A DNA stretch of 64,000 bases, taken from NCBI GenBank assembly GCA_965655095.1, contig OZ296651.1:53258001-53322000 (forward strand). Direction: 5' to 3'. The notes beneath the pieces are model-generated. The model was not told where the DNA came from and searched no databases. It saw nothing but the letters and a program-made list of their open reading frames with translations. A program made the position numbers and the translations under genes. Source of the stretch: Haplodiscus bocki. Taxonomy: Eukaryota. Positions 9,621 to 63,990 of this stretch are shown piece after piece; the first letter of the stretch is position 1; every line of letters starts with the position of its first letter.

Positions 9621-10085
9621 TCTTGTACTAACAAGGAAAACTTGCTCCAACGTTTTTCAGCCTAACCCTTACTAGTTTTTTCAAGTTCATTTTTCTCAAT
9701 CAAAACTACTGTTTTCGATTACTCTCCAGTAAATGAATAACTTGAAAGTCTCAAAATTTTAGTACAACTGACGGACAAATATCGACAACCGAGAAAGTAC
9801 TAAATTCATCTGACAAGGTCCAACAGAAGTCTTGAAAGGAACAATAATGCATTATCAATGTATGGTTGTCTACAAAGATGGAGAACCAATAATTGGAGGG
9901 ACAATAGCAGGTAATTTTAGAGGGCATGTTTTTGTAAGTTCAACGAAATTAGGAAATAGGAAAATCTATGTCCCTCACTGGAAATATAAACGATATCAGG
10001 TCGGTTCCAAGGCGCACACATTACCACTAAGTCAATCTGGGCCGGTTGGACCGGAACGAAAGTACGAAAATCTTCAAAAGCAACA
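9621..10085 (-). mobile_element. 3' LTR-like unit (~465 bp) directly downstream of BEL/Pao pol
   Basis: On the minus strand it begins TGTTGC right after a PPT-like GGGCTCGAATTA, ~110 bp past the pol stop, and ends ...GTACAAGA (decayed ...ACA). It aligns by eye over ~380 bp with 18230-18705. Confidence 0.6.
9970..10042 (-). other. tRNA-derived (Pol III A/B-box-like) segment inside the LTR; not a functional tRNA
   Basis: Minus strand: GCCCAGATTGACTTAGTGGTAATGTGTGCGCCTTGGAACCGACCTGATATCGTTTATATTTCCAGTGAGGGAC. The A box TGACTTAGTGG is good, the B box is decayed, and it is homologous to 18591-18662. Confidence 0.5.
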
Positions 10086-18229: not shown

Positions 18230-18705
18230 TCTTATCTCTCGGGGGATAGAACGGCGATTTCGACAGATTGGGGTCTACTTTCTGAGTTTAACACAACCAT
18301 TAGGCTATAAACTACTTCTCTGTGGCCAACTTTTTTTGATGACACTCCGTTCAACCAATAACGTAAAATTCTCAACAAGGTAATAACACGGACTAACAAA
18401 TATAGGTGGCCGAAAAGGTACCAAAATCATCTGCTAAAATCAAACAGAGGTTTCAAAAGAACAACGATGCGTCATCAATGTATGAATGTCTACAAATATG
18501 GAGAAACAATAATCGGAAAGGCAATAGCATGTAATTTTAGAGAGTTTTCTATTAGTAAACGTAGAGAAAATAGGAATTAGGAAAAACTTTGTCCCTCACT
18601 CGGAATTGAACTGGTATCAGGTCGGTTGTAACGCGAACACGCTACTGCTAAACCATTCTGGCCCTGTTCGACCGGAACGAAAGCATAATTTTTGCATACG
18701 CAATA
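18230..18705 (-). mobile_element. LTR-like unit (~476 bp), diverged relative of 9621-10085
   Basis: Same orientation and collinear similarity, e.g. tcaatgtatg..tgtctacaaa.atggaga..caataat and gtccctcact.g.aa...tatcaggtcggtt...gaccggaacgaaag. The minus strand starts TATTGC and ends GATAAGA (decayed TG...CA). No TSD seen. Confidence 0.6.
18591..18662 (-). other. tRNA(His)-like segment with Pol III A and B boxes inside the LTR-like unit
   Basis: Minus strand: GCCAGAATGGTTTAGCAGTAGCGTGTTCGCGTTACAACCGACCTGATACCAGTTCAATTCCGAGTGAGGGAC. It is collinear with the metazoan tRNA-His pattern (GCCGTGATCGTATAGTGG...GCGTTGTGGCCG...GGTTCGAATCCGAGTCACGGC). The stems do not pair fully. Confidence 0.6.
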
Positions 18706-46099: not shown

Positions 46100-48250
46100 A
46101 TCTTCTTCATGATTGTTTTGCCGTGATTACAAATTAGTGAATTAGTAACACCTTGAGAAAAAATGCCAATTGTCTATGACATATAAGGAAACAAAATTTG
46201 GTGGTTTTACCTAACTTTTGATTTAGTCATAATTTTTAACTCTGAAGACAACAATTTCTCTTTCGTCAGCCAAATATTGGTTTTTCGACGTGAACTTTCA
46301 ATCGATTTCCGTTTTATGATAGTTCGGCAAATTTTGGTTCTAACAGACCTTTCTCTTTTGTTCATGAAACCGATTGGTTGTTTTTCAGTGATGATTGCGG
46401 CAGATAATCATTTGAGACTTCGAGGCGTAAATATCCAAACAGATCACTTACGAATTCAACAAAGTATAACTCGAAGGCTGTCAAAAGGCCAATCTTTATC
46501 AAAATTTTAGCCAATGAATCATGTATTTTCTTGAAGCATTTTCGTCTCAATATTTTATGCTGCATATTTTGACGTCTTCTATGTTTGCTGTAGCCACTGA
46601 GACGTAAACGAGAACACCATATCTATTCCAGGATTTGGCATAAGCGTGATAGAACAAAAGAAAACAGTTACGAGAGTACAGATTGTCAGTCAGCCCACAG
46701 AACCTATTCTTTGACCAAAAAAACCAATAGGTTGGTTCAACCGAAGCCATTTGTCTACGTGTGCACCCAAATCTTCAAAATAAGTTTTGTATTCCAGACT
46801 TTTTTCTTGAGTTTTCAAATTTTCGGGTTCCCAGAACCAACAAATGTTACTTTACAATTATCTACGTTCATTGTTGCTTTGTTATTTACTTAGCAGCTTG
46901 AAACGGAGTCAGAATCTTTTTGTATTGAAAAGTATTTTATATTTCTTGCGTCCTTCGGGGCAGTATCATCTGCAAAAAAGGTTATGCCACTTTCGTCACT
47001 GCAGGCATCCAAGTTGTTGATGTAGATGACAAAAACAAGCCTTAATATTGAACCATGAGGCGTATTAGACCCAATTTCTTCATGATCTTTGTAAATTCGG
47101 TCTGAATCGAAATACTGCAACCTGTTATTCAGGAAAATAGCAGTCATTTCATGAATGGGTCTCCTCTGGCCGTATCTTTCTCCTTACTTTTCTAGCGTAT
47201 TCAGCAGTATTGTTTTGTTTGAATGTGTCAAACATTTTTTGAAGATTTACGAAGCATGCACGTCCCGTTGATTTTTTACCTACTTGTAATCTCTTATATT
47301 CAGTAACCAATGCTATTGCGTCCATGAGGAAACTGCTTTGGGTCTGAATCATTTGGATGATCGGACGAACAGACTGAGGATCCCACTTCAGAATGAGGAT
47401 CATTCTGGGAAGGATTCCCATTTAGTTCCCAGTTTTCTACATCTTTAATCTGGAATGCTTCGGGAACACTTCTTGAGTGTATTCGTACCTGTGGGTTCAA
47501 TAGATGGTCATCCATTTCAAACAGAGCACCAAAGATGCTGGAATTTATTTTGTTGAGCTGTTTTTTGTGTCAGTTTTTTGTTGACAGTTTTTTAGTGTTA
47601 GTTTTTCAGTGACCTTGCCTTCAATCTCTTCAGAAACTTGTCTCATATATTTTTCGTTGATTTTAGGAACGGACTTTTTTCGTGGCTGGCCATTCCTATA
47701 GGACGTTCCTGTTGTGCTTCTCTTGCAAAGTCTGCCAACTTTTCTTTGTTTGTCAATGTTGCCACTTTTTGACTGTAGAAAATTCCCAAAAGTAGTGAAG
47801 ACTGAATTGTTTTGTATTTTTTACAAACTCGATAGTACGACAAAGTGTTAGCCCTCTAGCAAATAACTAGTAACAATTTTGACAGTCAACTAACGAAATG
47901 AAGTAATGAAAAGACTCTTGAAAAGAAGTTTTCTCGTTCTTCTTATTGATACCTTTTCCTTGGTGGGAGTCGAATTTGCACACTTGCCATGTCATGGTAC
48001 AAAAGGGAAAATTACTTTATTTGTAGAATCTATAAAGTCAAAATGCCAAGTCTGCCGGAAGTAAACACCTATCCAACCATTTCTTTCTTCATAGGCCACC
48101 TCTTTTCTATCTTTCGACGGCAATTGTACGGGCTTATTGTACGTGGGAAACGGACATCAAAGTGCTTATTCCTGCATTGACACGATAAATTTCAGTGGAA
48201 ACATAAAGATCGAAAGGTTTTCCGTAAATGGAAATTTTTCATAAATTTCA
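46100..48250 (-). mobile_element. CR1/L2(Jockey-group)-type LINE remnant (endonuclease traces and RT)
   Basis: CFVNLQKMFDT (cf. FIDLQKAFDT), TPHGSILRLVFVIYINNL (cf. VPQGSILGPLLFLIYINDL), FFADDT, then LGAHVDKWLR and LLFYHAYAKS..YG downstream. Confidence 0.88.
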
Positions 48251-50061
48251 TTAGAGAAGATAATATTAATAACATGAAATTCAGGATTTTTTTTACTTAA
48301 AGGTACATGTCAGCTTACTGCGCTTCATCCGAGATGCAAAATGAACTGGAAAGAGGATTGTTCTTAGTCCGTTCCTCATTTCTACTCATCGGTGCCTTGT
48401 TTCAACCAGGTTGTTCCGGAAAAGTTCTGTATTCGCCTATAGCACTGTTTGTAGCAGTGCTGTTGAATGAGTGAATTGAGTGAATACTGAACTAATCCGT
48501 AATTGGCTGAAACAACACTGCATCATGGGACAGTAAATGGAATGATTTCTAGTGACACAACCAGATTGGTAGCAACGGAACAAGTACGGAATGAATAGCC
48601 ACTTTTGAAGTCAATTTTTTTCACGCGGCAGTTGCGATTAATACAGCTCATTGACAATGTCATTTTAACCTGATTACTGCAGTCTAGCCCTCTGAAAAGG
48701 TGGGTTTACATTAAGTAATTACATGAAATAATATGAATATAGCGCCTTTTAAACTGCAAATGAACTATTAGGTGACTATCCGTTTGTTCCGCTACGGTTC
48801 CGGCACAATCCGGATCAGTACCATAGGATAATACTTCTATGCTACGGTTCAGTTACATGATATGAAGTTAATACATACATAAAACATAAAGTTCATTGTT
48901 TTTAGTTTCCGTCCTTCCCTTGACGGTCCGGTACACTTTCTTTCCTTTCTTTTGGCTACACTTGCCCGCAGGTTTCGCAAAAATGCTGCAACAGCGTCTG
49001 CATAGAATCTTTCTGATCGCAAATCATATTGGTTTTTAGTGAAGATAAAATTTTTTTCACAGAATTTTATCTTTCGCTTTGAAATTAACATCTCAAAAAT
49101 TTTGCTTAAAGAGCTAAAATTGGCATTCCTACGTTGAAGGAACGCTTTCGTATTAATAAGTTTCTGAATGACACAGTTAATTAAAGTTATTAGCGGCGAA
49201 TTGCTACTGGCGTTGCCAGGTAAAAACTGCTAGTGGAACAAGAACACGCTGTCGCAGCCTGCCGCCTGTGACGGCCTGAATTACTCCGTCAATTATAATG
49301 GACAAGACTCGGGCATGCAGGGGTACGCATTGCCCCTATTCGAAGATTAAACTGACAAAACTCTCAATAAAAAAATTGCTGGATGAATTTCTTCCCCCCT
49401 CATTTTTATAAAATATGATATATATTATTATAATAATATATATACAAATAGAGTCCTACGAACATTTATATATCTATGTGCATAATCCCTACCAATAGCA
49501 AACAAGCTAGTATCTTTGGGGAACGGATATAGACAAATGCTTATAGTGCTCAATTAACTTGCAGTCTTATACTCAATTCTGATTGGTCGGAAATAGTACA
49601 CTTGTCGAAATTTTGACCAAGCAACAGCGTTGCTGGGGAGTGGTCAAAAGCTGGTCACAAGGACCTAATTTTGACCACTTTGCTCAAAACGAGTGGTCGC
49701 TTCTAAACACAAGGCGAAATACGGCAAATTGAAGTCGAAAATGCCAATCTATGACCATATTCAATTAAAAGACGTTGCTATGTAATTGTATAAGTATATT
49801 TTCATTTATTATTTGATGCTAAATTGTCCGCTACTTATTATTAATAAATCCCAAGCGAAAATTCGTAGTTGGTCATAATGCCCACTTTTGACCACCATAT
49901 TTTAATTTGAAGCCAATTTTGTGTATGAAACCTAATATCAACATTCTAGTCATATTCACTATATTATAACGGTAAATGACCACCGATGATATAAAAAAAT
50001 ACATGCAAACATGATTTGTTGACCTTCAGCATTTATCCAGATTTCGTAGCCATATTTTGAT

Positions 50062-51019
50062 TGTCATGATTTTTTGGCATTCCCCCTTTGATGTTTATTT
50101 TGTTAGTATTTTTAAAATGACGCCATATTGTTGATATATAAGATTCGGGTTAAGCCTTTTGATGTTTTGATTATAAATAGAATTGCGAACATGACATCAT
50201 TAGATTGTGCCACCCAATTGGCCGACGAATGTCATGTCAAACGAAGAAAAGGGTGACCCACAACTGCCAAAAAGCCTCCACCAGAAGGAAGATTGTGATT
50301 CTGAAAGACAGCTCAATAAAACATTCATTCTAAACTGATACCATTTTTCGGATTGTGTAAATACCTATCAAGTTTTGTTTTATAAATTACCATCACGTTC
50401 TTTTGTTGCTGTTAATATTATAATCTCGAGTACAATTGAGTTTTTAAAATAAACATGGTTTCTACTCGCAAGAAAAGACAGTCAAACAGAAGGCTCCTCA
50501 GCCAATTAGATGACTTCGATGAAGATATGGTTAGTGGCAACGCTGCTAGTGAAAGGCAACGAAATATTGTGGTCAGTGAAGGCACTAATGACCGAGATTT
50601 TACTGTTGGTACTTTTAGTAATAACATGGCGTCTAATGAAAGTACGGTGAATGTGAAAACCTTGGAAAGGTGTTTTAATGAGAGAATTGAAAGGGAACTG
50701 AGCAATATCGTTGATACAGTTGAAAACAGGATACAGAATGCGATTTTGACCGCCATTGATAACATTGTTGCACCTAAAATTGAATTAGCGATCAGGTCAA
50801 TAAATGCATCTTCTGGACGGGATGTGACTAGTGTGGCCGCGAATTCAGAATGTGGGGAACATGTGGGAATTATTGCTTCTTTTGAAAACGCATCTGGAAA
50901 CAACAATATACTACATGCATCGATTGTAAATGATGAGACTCTTCATAAAAATCTGGACGAGATAAGTGAGTTGTCGTTCCCGGAAACACAATTTGACCGG
51001 CAAGCACACACTCATCTCA
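50062..51019 (+). mobile_element. Solo-LTR-like unit (~958 bp) carrying an ORF
   Basis: The imperfect inverted ends are TGTCATGA and TCATCTCA, with an internal AATAAA at ~50316. ORF 50455 starts inside the unit and exits through the right end. No TSD found. Confidence 0.5.
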
Positions 51020-51078
51020 CACGCATAGCACAACCGATAGAACGGACAATGTGGATGTTCCGAATACACCGCTCTTAA
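50455..51078 (+). CDS. 207-aa repeat-associated ORF (basic N-terminus, helical core); probably retroelement-derived
   Basis: Longest ORF in the window, with an ATG in an AAACATGG context and a basic RKKRQSNRR segment. A diverged homologue at 51957-52256 shows it is multicopy. Confidence 0.6.
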   Translation: MVSTRKKRQSNRRLLSQLDDFDEDMVSGNAASERQRNIVVSEGTNDRDFTVGTFSNNMASNESTVNVKTLERCFNERIERELSNIVDTVENRIQNAILTAIDNIVAPKIELAIRSINASSGRDVTSVAANSECGEHVGIIASFENASGNNNILHASIVNDETLHKNLDEISELSFPETQFDRQAHTHLTRIAQPIERTMWMFRIHRS

Positions 51079-51956
51079 TGATAAATCGGTCCTCAAAATT
51101 TATTTCGGCTGTTACTTATAATCCTACAAAAAATTTGTTTAGTCAGGCTGTATTCACTTTTATTCTAAAGGTTTTAATGTCATTTTGGTATGCAATCATT
51201 TTGGTCTGAACATTAGCGTCACTAAAAGATGAAAAGTCAGACCTATAGAGAGGAAATGATGATGATGTTATTACTTGGTGCACTGAAAATTTACGTCGGG
51301 TGACTTGCACGCGAGACCCACCCCCCGGAGTTTCTCCGAAACTCAGGTAAATCAAGTCTACCGTAAAAATCAACTGAAAGTCACTCAAAAGAATTGGCAT
51401 GAAGAAGCGCAGATGACATAAATCTCAAATTACAGTAACATAGTCCTGAAACTTAATTGAGAAGTTCTCTGCTTCTCTTAAAAACGTAACAGCGGCAGAA
51501 AAATAGTAGTCAGCATCTATCTGCGTTTTTTCGAAATGTCTGGGGTGCAATAATTCGCGGTTTGTTTCATCTTATGAGATTTGGGACTCTTCAGTTTATG
51601 TAAATACCATCCGAGTGAAAGTCCGGACTAGGTTTAAATAAATCAGCCGCATTCCTCCTTCATCACGTTGGCGAATTTAGAATCGACTCTTGAAAAAGTA
51701 CAGCCAATTTCAAACTTTCCGAAATTTCAGATAGCGAATCCTCGATTCCTAGATTGCTGGCTGTGGTATCAGGGAAAATAACGACAACCTTAAAAAAATA
51801 CCGCTGATGAAAAACCGAGATGGTAGATGCTATGCGTGAGTACTTGCCGGGCAATGTTTTTTTCGACCGATATTTCACTTGCGTCAACAGTAGTACTGTC
51901 ACGAGCCTCGTCGATCCATTGTAGCCCTGTTTTTGAGTTCGAACTGCTTGAAGCGG

Positions 51957-52256
51957 TCATTTAAAGGTTTTCATTATTCCAAATGACATCCATCTAGCCC
52001 AAGTCGAGTACAACATTACCAGGGTGATAGCAGAGGACGAATTGACTGATTTCAAAGCTAGTTCCACCCTAGGTAACACTAAACTATCCATTGTTGCTGA
52101 AAAAGCGTCATATACTCTGGTCTCGACCCCAGCAACGTTATCCACTTCATAGCTTACTCTGTCAGAAAACATTCTATCTGATGTTTGCTTATCATCTTGA
52201 GAGCCAAAAACGGGAACCAAGTGGTTCACGTCACCAGAAACAACATTTTCACTCAT
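51957..52256 (-). pseudogene. Diverged, truncated homologue of ORF 50455-51078
   Basis: DKQTSDRMFSDRVSYEVDNVAG-VETRVYDAFSATMDSLVLPRVELALKSVNSSS aligns with NVKTLERCFNERIERELSNIVDTVENRIQNAILTAIDNIVAPKIELAIRSINASS. Confidence 0.7.
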
Positions 52257-52994
52257 TGCATGATTGGGGAATCTTCTACTTGTTCGGCAACTTTCTGAAA
52301 AGTTGCTGGTTTATCGAGGCAACTTGAACGTTTAAAATCATGGGGAGTGGCAATAAACTGGCAGCAATTAACGCGGACTTGTAGTCTTCATTTGAACTGA
52401 AGAACCACTTTTTTGCTGCGCGTTGTGTTTTCTGCAGTTTTCTCAGAATGTTTTTCACAGAGACCCGTATTGAACATGCATTTGCTTAGATGGGCCAAAC
52501 TTACTTTTTCGAGGCATTTTATCTGGTTTTCTTTGAGCTAAGATCGGATACGTTCCGTTTAATTGTGAACAACGGCTTGAGTTTCGCCTTGGTTGTCTGA
52601 TGTTAGTTTTCATTCTAGCTGAAAGTTGCACAGAAAACCAAGCCAAGGTATGTTCAGCCATTTGTAGGTAGGATGTCTTTGCTGTTGGTTTCGGAGATCA
52701 AGTTTTCTTCAATGATAAAAAACAGCCGGTTTGTTTCAATAAGTAAGATGCCGTTCTCAATGAAGAAGTTTTGTTGATTAAAGACACTGTGTTGTAGTCA
52801 AGTTTTTCATTAACTATAATTGAGAAGTCAATTGCAAATCCAAAATAATCGTCAACTTCAACTCGGTTGGTGTCAAGCTCGCATGAGGGGTTAGTGAGTA
52901 CATAAAGATTTTTTGCCTTTAGTTTTTGTCCATTGTTGAAGTCCTTACACCTATCTTGTGTCACCTAATAAGTGGGAACTTATGCACCATCATA

Positions 52995-54429: not shown

Positions 54430-57400
54430 CCATGAATCAGAAACTGAACAAATGGAACTGGCAACTGAGCTGATTTTCCGGCAACTCCAAAGTTTATGCG
54501 AGCCATTGGCAAATCAAATTGAGTTGGATACCACTGGAAAAGGCGACGTTAACGGTTCAAGACGTGATGAAACATCCGCAAGTTCAGAGGAAAGCTGGTA
54601 GGGAACGGTAATAGGAGTCAACCCGAACCCTCGGAGGCGAAACCGAGCACCGACTTTGGACAACATCATGTACTTTGCCGCGGCCAGACCGAGGACAGCA
54701 AAAACCAACCTTACATGACGCAATTGATGATTGCAATCACCACCGTCCTCAGCTGCATCCAGAGGACAACACGAAAACGCAAGCTTCTCCGAAACCACGT
54801 ACCGACATTCCAAGGAAAAAAACAGTATAGCGAGTTCGAACACCTCCGACTGAATCAAATACGACCATTCTATCACAAAATCACAGAAAAAGAGAAGCTC
54901 CACTTTTCAACCAGCCTGCTTCCAGAGCAAAGCAAGCGAATTCTGGAAACAACCAAAGTAACCCAAGGCAAACTTTACTCGACATACTGACAATGTTCCA
55001 CAGAGAGCACCCCTGCGGCAGCTTCATGGAATTGTCCAGGTACCAATAGGATGAACTATAGTACAACCGCCACCGCGAATTATATTTGAGTTTCAGAAAC
55101 CCATCAAATGAAACCGCGAAACAAGCCGTATACCCAAAAACTAAAGAATATGTCAAAGCTCTCTCCATCAGCAAAATACAGTTGCCATCCAAATTGACCC
55201 CAGTGTAGCCTGAAAACAAGACGCAACAGTAGACCAAAGCAGAAATATCCAAAAAACAAATCAGTACCAACAATTGAAGGGTACCCATACTCTACAACCT
55301 TTCAATGAAAAGTTTTTTGGTACGGGCGGACTTCAAAATCAAAAGCTAACCCGTGCGAACAAGTACCAGAAACGGAAATTCAGTGAACATGTTCGCAATG
55401 GAACAAAAAAAGCCGCCAAACAATGGATTTTGCAGCCTGCAAGTGAAAAATAGCCCATTTTGAACGACGAAACAAAGATTTGGGAATCCAACAGCAACAT
55501 CGCACACCAGTTCAACAGGCGCAAGACAGATCGAACTACATCATGAAGATGGTTTCTCAATTTTGCGGACGAACAGGACACTCTTTGCTCACTTGTAGGC
55601 ACCGTAATATGAATACCAACGCACACAGCAGCATACCCCACCAGAGACAAAATCCAGATGAGAACCGAGCTTTTATAAAAGAAATCAAACGTGCACATAA
55701 ACGATAGTTCTAATTGAACTAACGCACTGAAGCAATCAGTGACGCATCCCATTCTGAGAAGAGGCGGTTCAATCCGATTCTTCAAACAAATAAAACCCAC
55801 GTTATCCAAAATCCAAACGTGAACGACCGCCATATGTCAAATATAGTTCATGTAATTATTCAACTACTGACACTACGAAAGAACTGAAAGAAAATGAAAA
55901 ACCAAAATGATAAAGGCTTTGGAAATTCGGCAACCTTTGTCTGGCCACAATACCTAAAAAACGTTACTATGAAACGAGTCTCAAGCCAACAATCATCCTT
56001 GTGCACGCAACAGCAGAACAAGGGAATTACATACAAATGAATGAAACACTTAGGACAGCAATGGTATAAATGACGACTCATAACTCAATCAAGCTTTCAA
56101 CCTTGAGTGTCAAACAACCGCCAAACCTGATTACAATGAGGCACGGAACATTCCACTATTGGAGAGAACGACATCGTCTGGAAAGACACAAACACCACCA
56201 GTTGTTGACTGCTTCGGCTCAATTGAAACAACGTGACCGACATATGTATAGACACCTGGACTTTCAAAATACGAAAAAAAAGCTCCACAAGGTACTGGTT
56301 CCATTGGGAGCGCCATTTGTGAATCGGAATTCCATCGTTTCCTAGTCGCCCAACCTACGCTTCTCATACAAGATGTGACTGTACCAGACAAAAACGTTCA
56401 GAGTTCAAATGGCCAACGAAAGCACGATCCCCCTCACAAAAAGCTCCCATGTTTGTTTTTCCACAGTCGGAAAACAATTTGAGGAGACCTTCAAGATCTA
56501 GCCAACAATGGGTAGCATTTTGAAAACAATGTGTTTTTTCGAGGAGTACTCAGTGACGTTGGACAACCTCAACCGTCCGATATATTTCCTCGGTGTATCA
56601 CTCCAACTAGGTCAAACCAACGGAAAAGGAAACTGTGACTTATGGTCCAAGCTCCCAGCTGCACAGAGGATGGTGGTACTGCCCTATCAGCCACTTATGT
56701 TCTCAGTGTGCAACAACGCTGAAATTGTTTCAGACACTAGTACACCCGAACAAACAACAACCATCACTAAGTATGAAGCCTTACTGTTTACTTCTGCAAG
56801 CTCGAAAAGTTAGTGATCAACCCACATGGTAACGCCCACATGTTCAACGCTGGTGCAATCGCCCAACTTCACTGCACTGGCACACAACTAGGCAAGACCT
56901 GTGGAATCCAATGCACCGGCGATTTTGAGCCCTAAGACACTTCACCCCAAAAAGATTACAGCCAAAGTAAACCAAACAATCCATGATGAACCCAGAACGT
57001 CCAACTGGAAAAAAACACACCGTAAACTTGTCAAAACACTCAGACGCTCAACCCACTATAACGACGAATCTCTGACGCCATTTTCACCCTAAGAAAACAG
57101 AAACATCCGGATCCCAAAACGTCAGTTGAGCAGCGAAAGACATTCTCGGTGGAAACAAATCGAATTTTTCATAACTCACAACTAGGCAATGACAAAAAAC
57201 CACAACTACAACGTTTATTGGTCAAATTTTATAACATTTTATCACTTCACTGTACAGATAAGAGTGTTAACACTGAGTTCAAGAATAGGCATACACCTAG
57301 GCACAACAGCACGCTGTACGCCCACAGTCTGTCTGAACCAATCAACCTCAAAGACGGAACACTAGTCGAACTGGCATTAATGGAATAATTTGATGTTTTG

Positions 57401-59800
57401 ACAACGTTGCCTCTCAGCGAAAATTGTTCACCCATTATGACACAGCGAAAACCTAGTTGTCGACTCGAGCTGCTAGTGAATTAACGGCAGATTGACAACC
57501 TCATTAAACAGAAATACACAGAACATGATCATCTGGTAACACCCATAGCAGACTTTGCACTTTGCACATTACATGGCAGAGAAGGTGTTTTTTTAAGCTT
57601 GATTGCTCACAAGCGTGTGATTGCCTTTAGATGGCAGCTGAGCAAGCAATCCATCTCTTGTCGTTCAATTTTGTTTCTAGCAATTTTGCAGGAAAACGTC
57701 TCGTTTAAGTGATATACTGTTCCCTAACTCCATTCTTAATCGACAGTTTTTTGTTCAGGCGGTCAAAAATTGAAGTTTTGGGAAAGACGATTAGAGCTAA
57801 TGGAGTCAGTCCTGTATAAAAATCAACTTTTCTTTCAAAAATCGCAAAACATCTGTCTCAGCCTAATCACTGCAGCAATGCCTAGGTTTTGTTAAATTTT
57901 ACAGACCGTATCTAACTAAATTAGTTGAAAACCCTTTCCAATTTCAAACTCTTACAAACGGACGCTTTGTTTGAACTCACTGACTCGCTAGGTGACACGA
58001 TGCTTGAGATCAACAGAAACTTAGCCAAGGCAATTACAGTGTTCATTAGATGAATTCTCTTGGAGAGGCAGTTAGTCATAATGTGTGAACCCACTGAACA
58101 AGCAGCCGGTTACAGCCTCGTGATGGAAAACTTCAAGAAACCAGCCGGTGGTTCGATCATATGCATCGGTTGCATTTGGTTTTCGTAGAGCCATAAATAG
58201 CCCAATGTCAGTCGTTATGTAAGCTAACGAAGTCTTATCCTTGCAGTTCATTGTTGTTGAGTCTGGCCACATCTTGTGAAACGTCAGAAAACCCACGGTG
58301 GTAATGATTGATAACAGGGCTCTAACTAAAAAACTTTAGACAAAACAGGTTCCACTGAAATAATGGAATTCTTTCGACCAAACATTGCAGTTTAGTTTTG
58401 TTTAACTACATGAACCATGTACGATAATCGTGTTCTTGATCATGCATCTCGTTCAGACGGAAAACGCTAGCATTTCATCAAACTCGAATTCACGGTTAGC
58501 GTACCTGTGTACCGCATTGACAATTGGGCTCGCCCTAACACGCGCAAGAAAAACCAGGAACATGCGCCAAAATTGAACGAGCTGACACCTGAAACACAAC
58601 AGACATTCGGTGCCGTAAAGAAAATGCTCTCGCAGAACCGGGGTGTGACGGAACAGCACCTTGTGCAACGCAAACGCAACCAGCAGCGCTGTTGTCAAAC
58701 AGAACATCACGTGATCAATGTCAACACTTCATCATGTTTCAACCTCGCAACTCACTACTGTAACCACAATTAGGTCAAGTAAGCACGCAGGGGACACTAA
58801 TTTTGGACATTTCTAGTTTAACGACCCCAACATACAACAAATGATACGCTGCTTAGGTGCTTACGAGCTGCATCCGAACAACAGAAAAAATTACCAATCA
58901 GCTGTGACGAAAAATTAACAAAAATTAACGTATTGCTCTGTTCGTCAACGACCCACTATATCGTAAGTTCTCATACCTTTTAGACAAGGAAACAAACAAA
59001 CTAGTTGTGAAACCAGAAACAGCAATGGAGAAATTCGTGAAGTCAGTGCATTGAGACCCTATGCAGAGACACCCTGGTTCTTCTGAAAGACTGCTAGCCC
59101 ATCGCCAACAGTTTCAATCACCCAAAAACGCTGAAAAACATCAACGCGTCGTAAACAACTGCAACAATTCTATTCAGGCCAAATTTTACACCACAAGTAA
59201 ACTGAAACCGCCGTTATAACGGATCTACAACACTTCCGACGGACAAGCCAATATCAAGTCTGAAATCGGTCTGATCGGAAAATTGCCTCTTTTAAACGGT
59301 TGCACACACATCCTAACTGCAACTGACATCTTTTAGCGCTACCTGTTTGTCGTTGCATTAGAACACCATTTTTTTCATCCATGGCGAAATTTCTCAGGCA
59401 GATATTCACACACCCAGCGTTTGTGCCCTGCCCTATACTTGGCGGCAAGGTCTGCACGTTTAGTTCAAACGTTCAAATTGATCCCGTGGAAGTCTCAGGT
59501 ACCGACATTGAACATGCTACCACTAAGCACACTCAGAAAATGTATTACGTGTTTGATGTGCTTCCCATCAACAAACACCTAAAACACTACCATCTTTTCT
59601 ACACAACCCATATCTTTCTCTTTAGCTGAGCAACAACTCATCATTTAGTACCATTCCACAGAACATACCTCAACTCAGCATCCATTACGCCACTATCAAG
59701 ACGGCACCCTTCTTAGAAGTCAAAATTCTAGATAATAGCTCCGTAACAACCCTGCTCCGAAAAATTAGCTGGAGTACTTAATTGTGCATTTGATCGAAAC
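54430..59800 (+). mobile_element. Ty3/Gypsy LTR retrotransposon internal region (gag-PR-RT-RNaseH-INT), pseudogenised
   Basis: RVQMANEST (protease region, ~56400); LVELALME*FDVLTTLPLSENCSPIMTQRKPSCRLELLVN*RQID and FKLDCSQA..CL*MA (RT, 57360-57690); SYASVAFG and KPTVVMIDN (RNase H); ILTATDIF*RYLF and EHATTKHTQ (integrase). Confidence 0.88.
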
Positions 59801-60999: not shown

Positions 61000-62250
61000 A
61001 CGGTTAATTAAAAAAAACAGTCAGAACATATATGAGAGAAGCAAAGAACATTTATGTATATAAAAATATGCAGTCAGGGTCAATCACTGTGTGTCTACAC
61101 ACGATCATTGAGTTCCTTTCAATCTGCGTCATCAGCGTCTCATCAGTTCAATTCAAATAACCTGCGAAGTCTGAGTCCAACAAAAACAACCTCCATCAAT
61201 GTCTCACTAGCATCAGTTGAGACTGGAATCGCGACCTCTTCGTTGTCTCCTTGCGTTTCGAGGGATCCCTCGACCTCTCTTTAGTCTGACGCTTCAACGG
61301 ACTTGTTTTTCTGCTTCCGCCTCGAGCTTGACATCAGTTCCGAAGTATAGGTATCCGGAAATCACGGCTCTCTGAAAAGCCATGACTTGAACTTGTTGCT
61401 AATGTAGCCCTCTTTTAGTGCACAAGAAGTGCACAAAATTACTCACACACAGACACTTCCAACCACGAAAGTTTTCGCCTCGGTACAAACAACCTCTTGC
61501 AGAAAGCCACTGATTCCTGTTTTCCTTTACAACTGAAGTCGACATGTCAGCAGAGGCTAGTTGACCCTAAATAGAGAACCGATTACAAAAACAATGCAAC
61601 ACAGAAGATCTCTCTTTCAAGTTTAGCACCTCTGCGATCACAGAATTGAAACAGCCGAGTGTGTAGTTCTTCTTTCCCGCAGTCAACAACAGCACCTCAA
61701 CCATCAGTCTCAATTCCGCTGATCCGTTCCACTTGTCCGATCCGAGCTAAAACCACTTCAGATCTCCAACAATTTCGACATTGTTGCCATAGCCCCACCG
61801 TATTCTCAATATCTTGACAAAAACATCATGGCGTTTTGGCACATTCCGAGACTCCAACTCGGTAATAACGCCAAATTCCGGGCGGTAGACATTCAGTGGA
61901 ACACTTCCTCATTGAGACGATCTGCTCTTCCCTCCTGGTTGATCTGCAGCATCAGAAGTCACAACATCACGCTGCTGGACAGAAGTGTTCGCATGGTTGG
62001 AACTAACCCCACCACCAAATGCCGCAAGAGACTCAAGGCAACAGTGAAGAACTGCGTTTTTGTCTATTGACTGAGCGCCACAAAGAAGCGTTCCAAATGC
62101 GCTTCCACAGCGCTACTTGCAAGATGATGCTAGGAAAAGTGTCAAATCACATTTTGAACCTCTTCTGGGCCCGTTTCTTGAATTGGTCTCCGTACAACAT
62201 TTTTCAAGATTTCCGACAACTTCAAGATTCATGCGGAGCTTCTTCTTCCT
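61000..62250 (-). mobile_element. Ty3/Gypsy integrase-region remnant
   Basis: Decayed minus-strand frames include a C..C knuckle end (~62200) and DKWNGSAE…LLLTAGKR (cf. WDxxLP…LxxGRE, ~61680-61740). Confidence 0.45.
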
Positions 62251-62299
62251 CAACTTGACCTGAAAACTCGCAATCGTTTTTTTGTAAGTTGAACGTGAT

Positions 62300-62880
62300 G
62301 GCTGTTGGTTTATCGGTCATATGTCGTAAAAAGTTCAAACTGCTTCCGGGAAGCAAGAAATTTTTTCAATTTTTGAAAGAAAAACATTTCGCTCTAAACG
62401 ATCATCGGGACAGGGTGCTATATTTACAACACTATCATAAAATTTTTTCGCAGAATTTTTACTTTCGGACACATGGAAAGCGGTTTAGAGGACACCAGTC
62501 AAGAATCTATCCCCCGTGAAGAAAAAAGTTCCAAATTGTTGCAACCATGTGAGGTCTTTTGACCAAGATGTAACCCCAGACACGTAGATTTGACAACACC
62601 GGCCAGAAAATTTTCGCCCTGAAACTGGAAGAACTTATGAAAGTTCAAACTTTCCTGTGAATGTTCTCTAATTAAAGGTTCTCCCGGTCAGGTAGAGTGC
62701 AGTTTTGTTCGTGCCAACTTGTTCGGCAGAACTCCTTTAGAGACTACCTGTTTTTTAGGAAGGTTTTGAATTTTTTTCTTGCAAATTTTTCTGTAAACGC
62801 TTAGAATTCACGTTAGGTGCCTCAAACAAAGTGAACAAAGGTAAAGTTGGGCCATATTACAACATAAAATCAACCCAAAG
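62300..62880 (+). repeat. Copy 1 of a ~580-bp direct repeat (copy 2 at 63410-63990; offset ~1106 bp)
   Basis: Collinear matches include gctctaaac..tcatcgggaca, ccctgaaac.ggaagaa.tt.tgaaa, aattaaaggttc.cccggtca and gcctcaa.caa…ggcc.t.ttaca. Confidence 0.85.
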
Positions 62881-63409
62881 AGTTTATAAAAAGCAATTAC
62901 ACCAGCCAAGTGGTATGTGATATAAAGAAAACATGACAATTTGATGATGGATAGAAAACTTTTCTGGAAAATTCAACCGCCTCAGAAATTTTCCGTATCG
63001 AAATGGTCCTCGGCGCCAGTTTAGAATCCTCAGATTGTCTTTTACCAGTTTTGTTTGTCCTTTGGTTTTCATTTGAGGTTTTGGTTTTGAGTCTTACGAT
63101 TTGCATTAAGCTGTATCAAAATTGTACACGTATTGTCATTTTGTCCAAGTTATACCAAAACGTAACCGAGCCCCGACAATTAGCCAAAACATTGAAATTC
63201 AAAATTTCAAAGGCACCATCTGTAACAGAACGCTAGGAAGACAGTCGATTTTTTTTATATATCTCTTTTTGGCTCTCTTCTTAATTTTGTCTCGTAAAAT
63301 GCTTTTCAAGTTTTCTGCCAGCTTCAAATTTCTTGCGGAGCACATTTTATCTCAACCTAACTTGAAAACTTCCCATCGCTAGTTTTTAAGATTTGCAGGC
63401 ATTGAAAAA

Positions 63410-63990
63410 TGATGTATAGGTCATCAGTCGGAAATATTTTGCTCTAACTGGGAAAAGCTCGAGGTCTTTCCAACATTTGGAGCAAAACTTTTTTGCTCTA
63501 AACATTCATCGGGACAAATAGAATACATCTACGATAGAGAATTTAAACTTTTTGCACGAAATTTTCATTCCGGGACGCATTGAATACAGTTTTGAGGGCA
63601 CCAGCAAAAAACCTGTCCCCCATGAAGAAAGAATCTGCATATTCTCGTAACGTTGTCAGAACTTTCTGACAGAAGTGTTTCCTGGACGCATAGTTTTGAC
63701 AACAGCTGCACGAACATTTTCACCCTGAAACCGGAAGAATTTGTGAAATATCAAGCTTTCCAGTGAATGTTTCTCAATTAAAGGTTCACCCGGTCAATTG
63801 GAATGAAGTTCGATCCTAGCCAGTTTGTTTCGCAGAAATCCATGAATGAAAAATTTCTTTTTGATAAGATTTTGTAAAAATTTGTCGCAACTTTTTTCTG
63901 TGGACGCTTGAAAATCAGCTTAGTTGCCTCAAGCAAGATAAACAGAGGTGAAAATAGGCCTTCTTACAGCGTGACACAAACTCTGGATGA
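63410..63990 (+). repeat. Copy 2 of the ~580-bp direct repeat
   Basis: See 62300-62880. Contains internal ggac.c.tag…gttttga subrepeats. Confidence 0.85.

Follow-up and report, generated by a model that had tools for sequence, protein, structure and literature searches.

The ends of an LTR are usually treated as being set by one PBS and one PPT, and the 3' end of U5 is fixed by the position of the primer in the established steps of reverse transcription. In HIV, nef, a sense ORF located after pol, ends inside the 3' LTR. For the other end of the element, the available parts of two papers on Ty1 give a 53-nt 5' UTR and a PBS at RNA nt 95–104, inside the GAG frame, so that GAG starts in the LTR (PMC5454406, PMC4974528); going by the same text, Ty1 is a published exception to the rule, invoked in the first-pass annotation of the DNA studied here, that gag lies after the PBS in standard elements. 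Other sources, again as far as their available text goes, describe two primer sites, one at either end of the genome, in Drosophila gypsy (PMC1635307) and rodent MT/ERVL solo LTRs that can give a start codon to flanking DNA (PMC5538554).

The window, a 64-kb stretch of DNA from Haplodiscus bocki, contains an ORF that consists of the first 188 codons of gag, about a third of Gag, within a solo LTR. Taken as a whole, the reading that these codons start in a Ty3/gypsy LTR and are read through the PBS, and that the LTR edge likely slides by use of a later PBS, is very probably correct.

Structure and class of the element

The ORF encodes 207 aa (ATG at 50455, stop at 51078); nine ATG-started ORFs in the window reach 100 aa or more, and it is the longest. 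It had been singled out as the only long intact repeat ORF; its rank in the window stands, but 15 of 61 and 11 of 55 copies are likewise open over the LTR-coded part. The genome searched amounts to 1.5 Gb, and positions 50000–51150, used as the query, gave 3,781 candidates, 40 of which were scored and 30 loci fetched. The right edge of the repeat falls at 51019–51022 in 29 of 29 other loci (three of them 3–5 bases short), and the ORF does cross this boundary into the flank, as first described: 565 nt (188 codons plus 1 nt) lie within the repeat and the flank supplies 19 codons. The left edge fared differently. It had been placed at a TG at 50062, about 390 bp before the ORF; this position is internal and was rejected, as none of the 29 other loci begins there and 26 of them begin at about 49250, which puts the ATG 1,205 bp into the LTR. 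The LTR reads TGTCGCAG...CATCTCA over 1,770 bp, with TG...CA ends, and CACGC is present on both sides as a perfect 5-bp TSD (Table 1). Read depth rises from tens to thousands in bins spanning both LTR edges in DNA contigs from four public runs, which belong to one study and come possibly from the same sample as the source. No empty-site joint was found among the 15 listed of 18 joints in these contigs, a result that carries no weight either way. About half of the LTRs of the family have an additional 120–130 bp at window positions 49980–50000, giving length classes near 1,770 and 1,900.

Table 1. Features of the window LTR and of related remnants, in window positions
Feature	Positions	Strand	Basis
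Left TSD, CACGC	49245..49249	+	Flank comparison
Solo LTR, 1,770 bp, TG...CA, Ty3/gypsy family A	49250..51019	+	Locus alignment, TSD, depth
Last 32 codons and stop of the sense ORF entering the 3' LTR in full elements	49252..49350	+	pN/pS
Gag residues 1–188, LTR-encoded	50455..51019	+	Frame continuity, selection
Conserved amphipathic helix, residues 67–119, predicted parallel homo-oligomeric coiled coil	50653..50811	+	Conservation, models
Right TSD, CACGC, in place of the PBS of a 5' LTR	51020..51024	+	
Chance read-through tail, 19 codons and stop, flank DNA	51020..51078	+	ORF against LTR edge
Old decayed LTR remnant, sister subfamily, same gag N-terminus and same end point in the protein	51833..52310	-	Right end by eye from translation
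Decayed remnant resembling the family B gag N-terminus	47384..47697	-	E 1e-8

Eighteen of the 30 loci are of the solo type, with both flanks readable and without PBS or PPT-side sequence; their TSDs are perfect in 12, with one mismatch in five and two mismatches in one. The remaining 12 comprise five loci without an identifiable left end, one running off the locus edge and six 5' or 3' LTRs. Paired LTRs, which the first-pass annotation had proposed to look for together with TSDs, were found about 11–17 kb apart and are 89–98.5% identical; among the four pairs with both outer flanks readable, the TSD is perfect in three and matches at 4/5 positions in one. The window copy would have formed by LTR-LTR recombination, since a single LTR lies between two TSD halves. 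It is a solo LTR decaying in the ordinary way; what is unusual is the gag fragment built into it, the long form of a known layout. Elsewhere in the window, decayed RT, RNase H and integrase pieces at 57155–59536 (+) are 25–43% like the pol of the same family, and there are old direct repeats at 62160–62861 / 63263–63968 (69% identical) and 9708–10062 / 18329–18683 (74% identical).

The window family (family A) belongs to the Ty3/gypsy LTR retrotransposons. Two natural copies (L125 and L127) have the domain order PR, RT, RNase H, integrase, preceded by a gag with zinc knuckles, and the best RT matches in a PDB sequence search are foamy virus and Ty3 RT structures. Membership of Ty1/copia was rejected, as integrase does not precede RT and the element is Ty1-like only in the start position of gag. 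In Gag, PF00098 scores above the cut-off and capsid-type families below it; the top Foldseek rows are retroviral and PNMA capsids, none of them at E 0.001, for a full-Gag model with a mean pLDDT of 42. Five copies close gag with TTTAAAC-TAA, the TTTAAAC before the stop being, from its sequence, a probable -1 slippery site.

A sense ORF located after pol starts upstream of the 3' LTR, and its final 32 codons lie within the first 99 bp of the LTR. Over this stretch, pN/pS in 36 copies is 0.26 (0.10 for shared alleles) as against 0.88 and 1.30 in the other frames, with non-coding controls at 0.5–0.9. Because purifying selection acts on these 99 bp in one frame only, that of the sense ORF, the LTR is coding at both ends. 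The 3' LTR of family A is preceded by a C-run and then GGGAG, without a purine-rich tract (L002, L007, L150–L155), and these bases fall in the frame of the sense ORF. No env family was found in the post-pol ORFs of broken copies, which gave no Pfam match and no clear membrane helix (highest 19-residue hydropathy of 0.5–1.7 in four pieces). Antisense ORFs of several hundred codons are present between pol and the 3' LTR (L031, L040, L047, L126, L128) and are common to diverged families; one has a CxxC...H zinc-finger-like motif, and none has a Pfam family above the cut-off. PPT-side sequence lies left of the LTR in 8 of 60 junctions (L167–L226), which are tandem elements with a common LTR. No TATA or poly(A) motif is conserved enough to place the transcription start or poly(A) site; the best AATAAA is at 50799 in 28 of 36 copies, but lies within gag codons.

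The start of gag and the primer-site arrays

The 5' LTR is followed by TGGTGACAGGA, which is complementary, over 11–13 nt, to the 3' end of a tRNA-Leu(CAG) present in the same genome. The TGG-type PBS and the continuation of the frame into gag, both of which the first-pass annotation had suggested looking for, are thus present: the LTR-PBS junction CAC A|TG GTG ACA GGA translates as H-M-V-T-G, and the frame continues into gag in 60 of 60 sampled junctions (the first distinct places on contigs C1 and C2, leaving out two second matches 72 bp away and L151). The exact LTR end plus PBS occurs 341 times in the genome, and one copy (L052) has an uninterrupted frame of 588 aa that begins at the LTR ATG and takes in the capsid and knuckles. 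Among database proteins, 508 longer ones match the ORF, and 37 of the 120 listed carry the zinc knuckle PF00098. The LTR-coded part itself gave no Pfam family, and when its N-terminal model was compared by fold with viral structures, nothing was obtained at E 0.001. Transcription would start upstream of 50455, in which case minus-strand strong-stop DNA would be longer than 565 nt. The tRNA-Leu(CAG) 3'-end pattern has 818 matches, against none for the control, with tRNA calls by ARAGORN at two of eight fetched loci. An array with a period of about 424 bp and carrying this pattern is located at G000:C1:161,094,000–161,151,000 and beyond, and the 818 matches lie mostly on one strand, the primer tRNA or a derivative being highly amplified.

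Exact LTR ends without a PBS number 1,728 against 268 in the control, i.e. roughly 1,460 above background. The read-through tails of solo LTRs have a median length of 25 aa and are different at every locus; the 19-codon tail of the window copy is accidental. The diverged homologue noticed nearby was recovered on the minus strand at 51960–52187 (30% identity, E 5e-10), and its relatives are old remnants that end at the same protein point and continue into unrelated DNA. The separate old protein family that had been proposed on this basis is the N-terminus of Gag instead.

Tandem units composed of PBS, spacer and LTR end lie between the LTR and unique gag in 21 of the 60 family A junctions, and 13 arrays were present among 30 other loci. 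Each unit opens with a PBS-like word, and CA closes 42 of 43 units, as it closes the LTR. The units are 30, 33 or 42 nt long and all 21 arrays are multiples of 3, lengths that would preserve the gag frame. In five insertions, the LTR ends after the last unit, in CA, with a perfect TSD directly beyond: four full elements with an extended 3' LTR (L149/L150, L161/L151, L164/L155 and L165/L160, which contain whole arrays of 2, 1, 2 and 4 units, respectively) and one extended solo LTR with one unit (L152). Unit ends without a following TG gave three matches (against 77 with TG) and a second pattern gave one more, the fifth case coming from the TG list; ending at the last unit is therefore partly built into the four cases picked by unit-end patterns. 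A partial duplicate of L155 (L156) and tandem or segmental duplicates (L153/L154, L157/L158) were dropped. Such ends are rare (1 of 61 sampled ends, and 1 of 22 among those with arrays), and the LTR ends at the first PBS in elements on C103, L141 and L145 despite their arrays.

The age of these extended ends can be judged from the two LTRs of each element. In three of the four pairs the units are no less diverged than the LTR body (differences at 3/66, 8/66 and 5/159 positions, as against 23, 48 and 18 per 1,000), so that the extension is at least as old as the insertion. In L165/L160, an altered first end and an altered first PBS are common to both LTRs. The fourth pair, L161/L151, is 99.9% identical over the 3' 1.2 kb and 92% identical at the 5' end, and looks like a case of later homogenisation by conversion, or an assembly effect. 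With the end of U5 set by the primer and the extension as old as the insertion, these observations point to priming at the last PBS. Most likely, judging from these sequences, the right edge slides by occasional priming at a downstream PBS. The first PBS would be the normal priming site; priming at a later one would copy the upstream units into U5, each unit end would provide the CA required by integrase, and arrays could grow and shrink through out-of-register second-strand transfer. In work on engineered HIV primers, the available text describes an upstream-primed strand that destroys the template for the downstream one (PMC3832253), and the rarity of sliding would fit, by analogy, such a loss of template. 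A search for tRNA helper boxes near the last PBS gave 7-mers only, at chance level.

It is also conceivable, but unlikely, that the same element, with the same Gag N-terminus, acquired its extended ends after insertion, by conversion from the 5' LTR or by deletion within a tandem element, joined at the 8–10 nt that unit ends have in common with the LTR end. Tandem elements are common, as seen in the junctions with PPT-side sequence, L161/L151 appears to have been recently homogenised, and the solo L152 is explicable by crossover at short homology. The divergence of the units in the other three pairs argues against this account, as does the altered state shared by both LTRs of L165/L160, which indicates that it was inherited; moreover, 1.8 kb of full homology should be favoured over 8–10 nt. 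Sliding is not established as the route by which gag came into the LTR, because a search of the upstream part of the window LTR gave no relic PBS (the best match has 5 mismatches of 14).

A second family, family B, has a Gag about 32–38% identical to that of family A, with 133 codons in the LTR and the same PBS in the same phase. Arrays are present at all of its junctions; of 47 units, 44 measure 30 or 42 nt and the other three differ by slippage of a GA repeat, two of them being out of frame. In the place of a polypurine tract, beside the 3' LTR, it has AAAGAGGGGGAG. A pattern search found no extended ends in family B; one element (L140), with a single unit, a further 11 nt of PBS and a 4/5 TSD match, was left unclassified. 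The pN/pS ratio in family B is 0.80 (0.44–2.15), the family being too young for the test. Elements L140–L145 of this family are about 7.1 kb long, with LTR pairs 94–99.5% identical; they carry gag, and no pol match was obtained by tblastn in the three tested. From this gene content, they are presumably gag-only elements moved by the pol of another family. At L111, the sequence after a family B LTR has a translation ending in ..RRTHAHH, like a family A-type LTR end, as if the family B LTR had been inserted in a related one.

Outside the PBS, the 30-nt units of families A and B are 89% identical (9 by 7 units), and the four-fold sites of their capsids match at 14/41. This similarity suggests that units may have been exchanged between families at the common PBS, constraint on the peptide being the alternative. 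A joint ratchet, in which later-unit priming would make the LTR take in gag codons, the former end would decay, repeated rounds would put a third of Gag inside and units would pass from one family to another during second strand transfer, can be put forward only tentatively, as a reading somewhat more likely to fail than to hold.

Selection on the LTR-coded part of Gag

Over the LTR-coded part of gag, pN/pS is 0.41 (bootstrap 0.35–0.48) in 62 copies, falling to 0.29 for alleles in at least three copies and 0.23 in at least six; the values for the remaining sense frames are 1.07 and 0.75. This set leaves out L029 and L060, whose partners were already counted, as well as two of 64 copies that failed to align over 520 nt. 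An antisense frame with a low value (0.47) was set aside as a mirror of the gag frame and not a signal of its own. At 55 of the 60 junction loci, the ratio is 0.31 (shared 0.22) for the LTR-coded part and 0.26 (shared 0.14) for gag just past the PBS, and a codon model of 35 copies gives 0.44. The selection ratio among copies, proposed at first pass as a check, is thus well below 1 in both samples. Private changes behave differently, with pN/pS of 1.41 and 1.18 in two samples and 11 private stops observed against 13.4 expected. Purifying selection acts on the replicating element, and solo copies, including the one in the window, decay neutrally after insertion. With six private changes, the window copy is expected to have kept its frame open even in the absence of host selection.

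Constraint is centred on residues 65–122, and the helix has a pN/pS of 0.11 for shared alleles. Structure prediction, which had also been proposed for the core, gave one long helix at residues 67–119, with a pLDDT of 72–90 over 71–120 and below 50 for the remainder. Three copies of residues 58–125 were modelled as a parallel bundle with a score of 0.63 (best of three controls, 0.02), with at least 80% contact agreement between runs and a pLDDT of at least 76. Of the solved homodimers, 21 of 30 attain the score mark, as do 0 of 23 single chains; the figures are 17 of 29 for eukaryotes and 7 of 16 for animals, with 0 of 30 single chains; three copies fall outside this calibration. These models support the LTR-coded helix as a putative Gag oligomerisation domain.

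The first-pass annotation saw in every solo LTR an ORF cassette and a potential source of new genes. Each does have a gag fragment entering the flank, but a role as a source of new genes is unsupported and the tails are short. That the host keeps the solo-LTR ORF, for instance as a truncated Gag that poisons full Gag by co-assembly or to serve new genes as a first exon, would accord with the excess of LTR ends lacking a PBS, with the fifth to a quarter or so of copies that are open, with the location of the predicted oligomerisation helix in the fragment and with the rodent gene founded by an LTR-supplied start codon, as presented in the available part of its description (PMC5538554). It is nevertheless very improbable: no host gene is indicated, because the private changes look neutral; in the window copy, the four classifiable private changes all alter amino acids, and the tails are unlike at every locus. 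A domesticated gag-derived host gene was looked for as purifying selection after insertion, and none was detected in the private ratios or the stops. A separate accessory protein encoded by the LTR, with Gag proper starting from the ATG at the junction (CA|TG), draws on the in-frame ATG formed in every unit and on the lack of Pfam or fold matches, and has next to no probability, as open copies have no stop or frame change between the two parts and all arrays are multiples of 3, although a start in the last unit would free the upstream units of frame; an additional shorter Gag may be made from the junction ATG.

Comparison with known systems

The new part consists of the PBS arrays with alternative LTR ends backed by TSDs, gag starting in the LTR being already known from Ty1. 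In the literature searched, which was mostly open-access and without Repbase or supplements, no description of a tandem PBS array or a sliding LTR end was found, and the gag-in-LTR layout of family A is absent from the available parts of PMC3601003, PMC5408684 and bioRxiv 2022.12.06.519325. In family A, the position of the right edge differs from one insertion to the next by steps that the repeated primer sites dictate, as the TSDs prove; genome data can thus be used to test how the primer is chosen, how integrase recognises the ends and how gag-in-LTR layouts arose. If true, the ratchet would be a natural, datable record of LTR boundary evolution and primer-site choice. The database homologues (2,622 matches in one search and 1,838 clusters in another, those sampled carrying no name) also acquire an explanation: thousands of orphan gene calls of 190–250 aa are gag fragments of solo LTRs with random tails, and not a host family.

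Family A resembles Ty3/gypsy (Metaviridae) in its domain order, CCHC knuckles, TG...CA LTRs, 5-bp TSD, tRNA PBS and probable TTTAAAC slip site, and differs from it in having a third of Gag in the LTR, coding at both LTR ends, PBS arrays, a variable right edge and no purine-rich tract. The post-pol sense ORF is like HIV nef in layout, although it has no Pfam match and no env was found. Ty1 has the copia order and tRNA-iMet, whereas the families described here use tRNA-Leu, with the order PR-RT-RH-IN in family A. According to the available parts of the Ty1 papers, about 14 LTR codons (by subtraction) can be counted in Saccharomyces cerevisiae, against 188 in family A and 133 in family B, and tandem PBS-plus-end units such as those forming arrays in both families go unmentioned in that text (PMC5454406, PMC4974528). 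In rodent MT/ERVL, as far as the available text describes it, the LTR provides a short first exon and a splice donor, whereas here it provides 188 gag codons with no co-option indicated (PMC5538554). Drosophila gypsy and the multi-part PBS of Ty3 likewise have more than one site for the primer tRNA; in the available parts of these papers, the sites occupy opposite genome ends or pair with other parts of the tRNA (PMC1635307, PMC4974528), whereas those described here are whole acceptor-stem sites arranged in tandem, and a copy of the LTR end precedes each of them.
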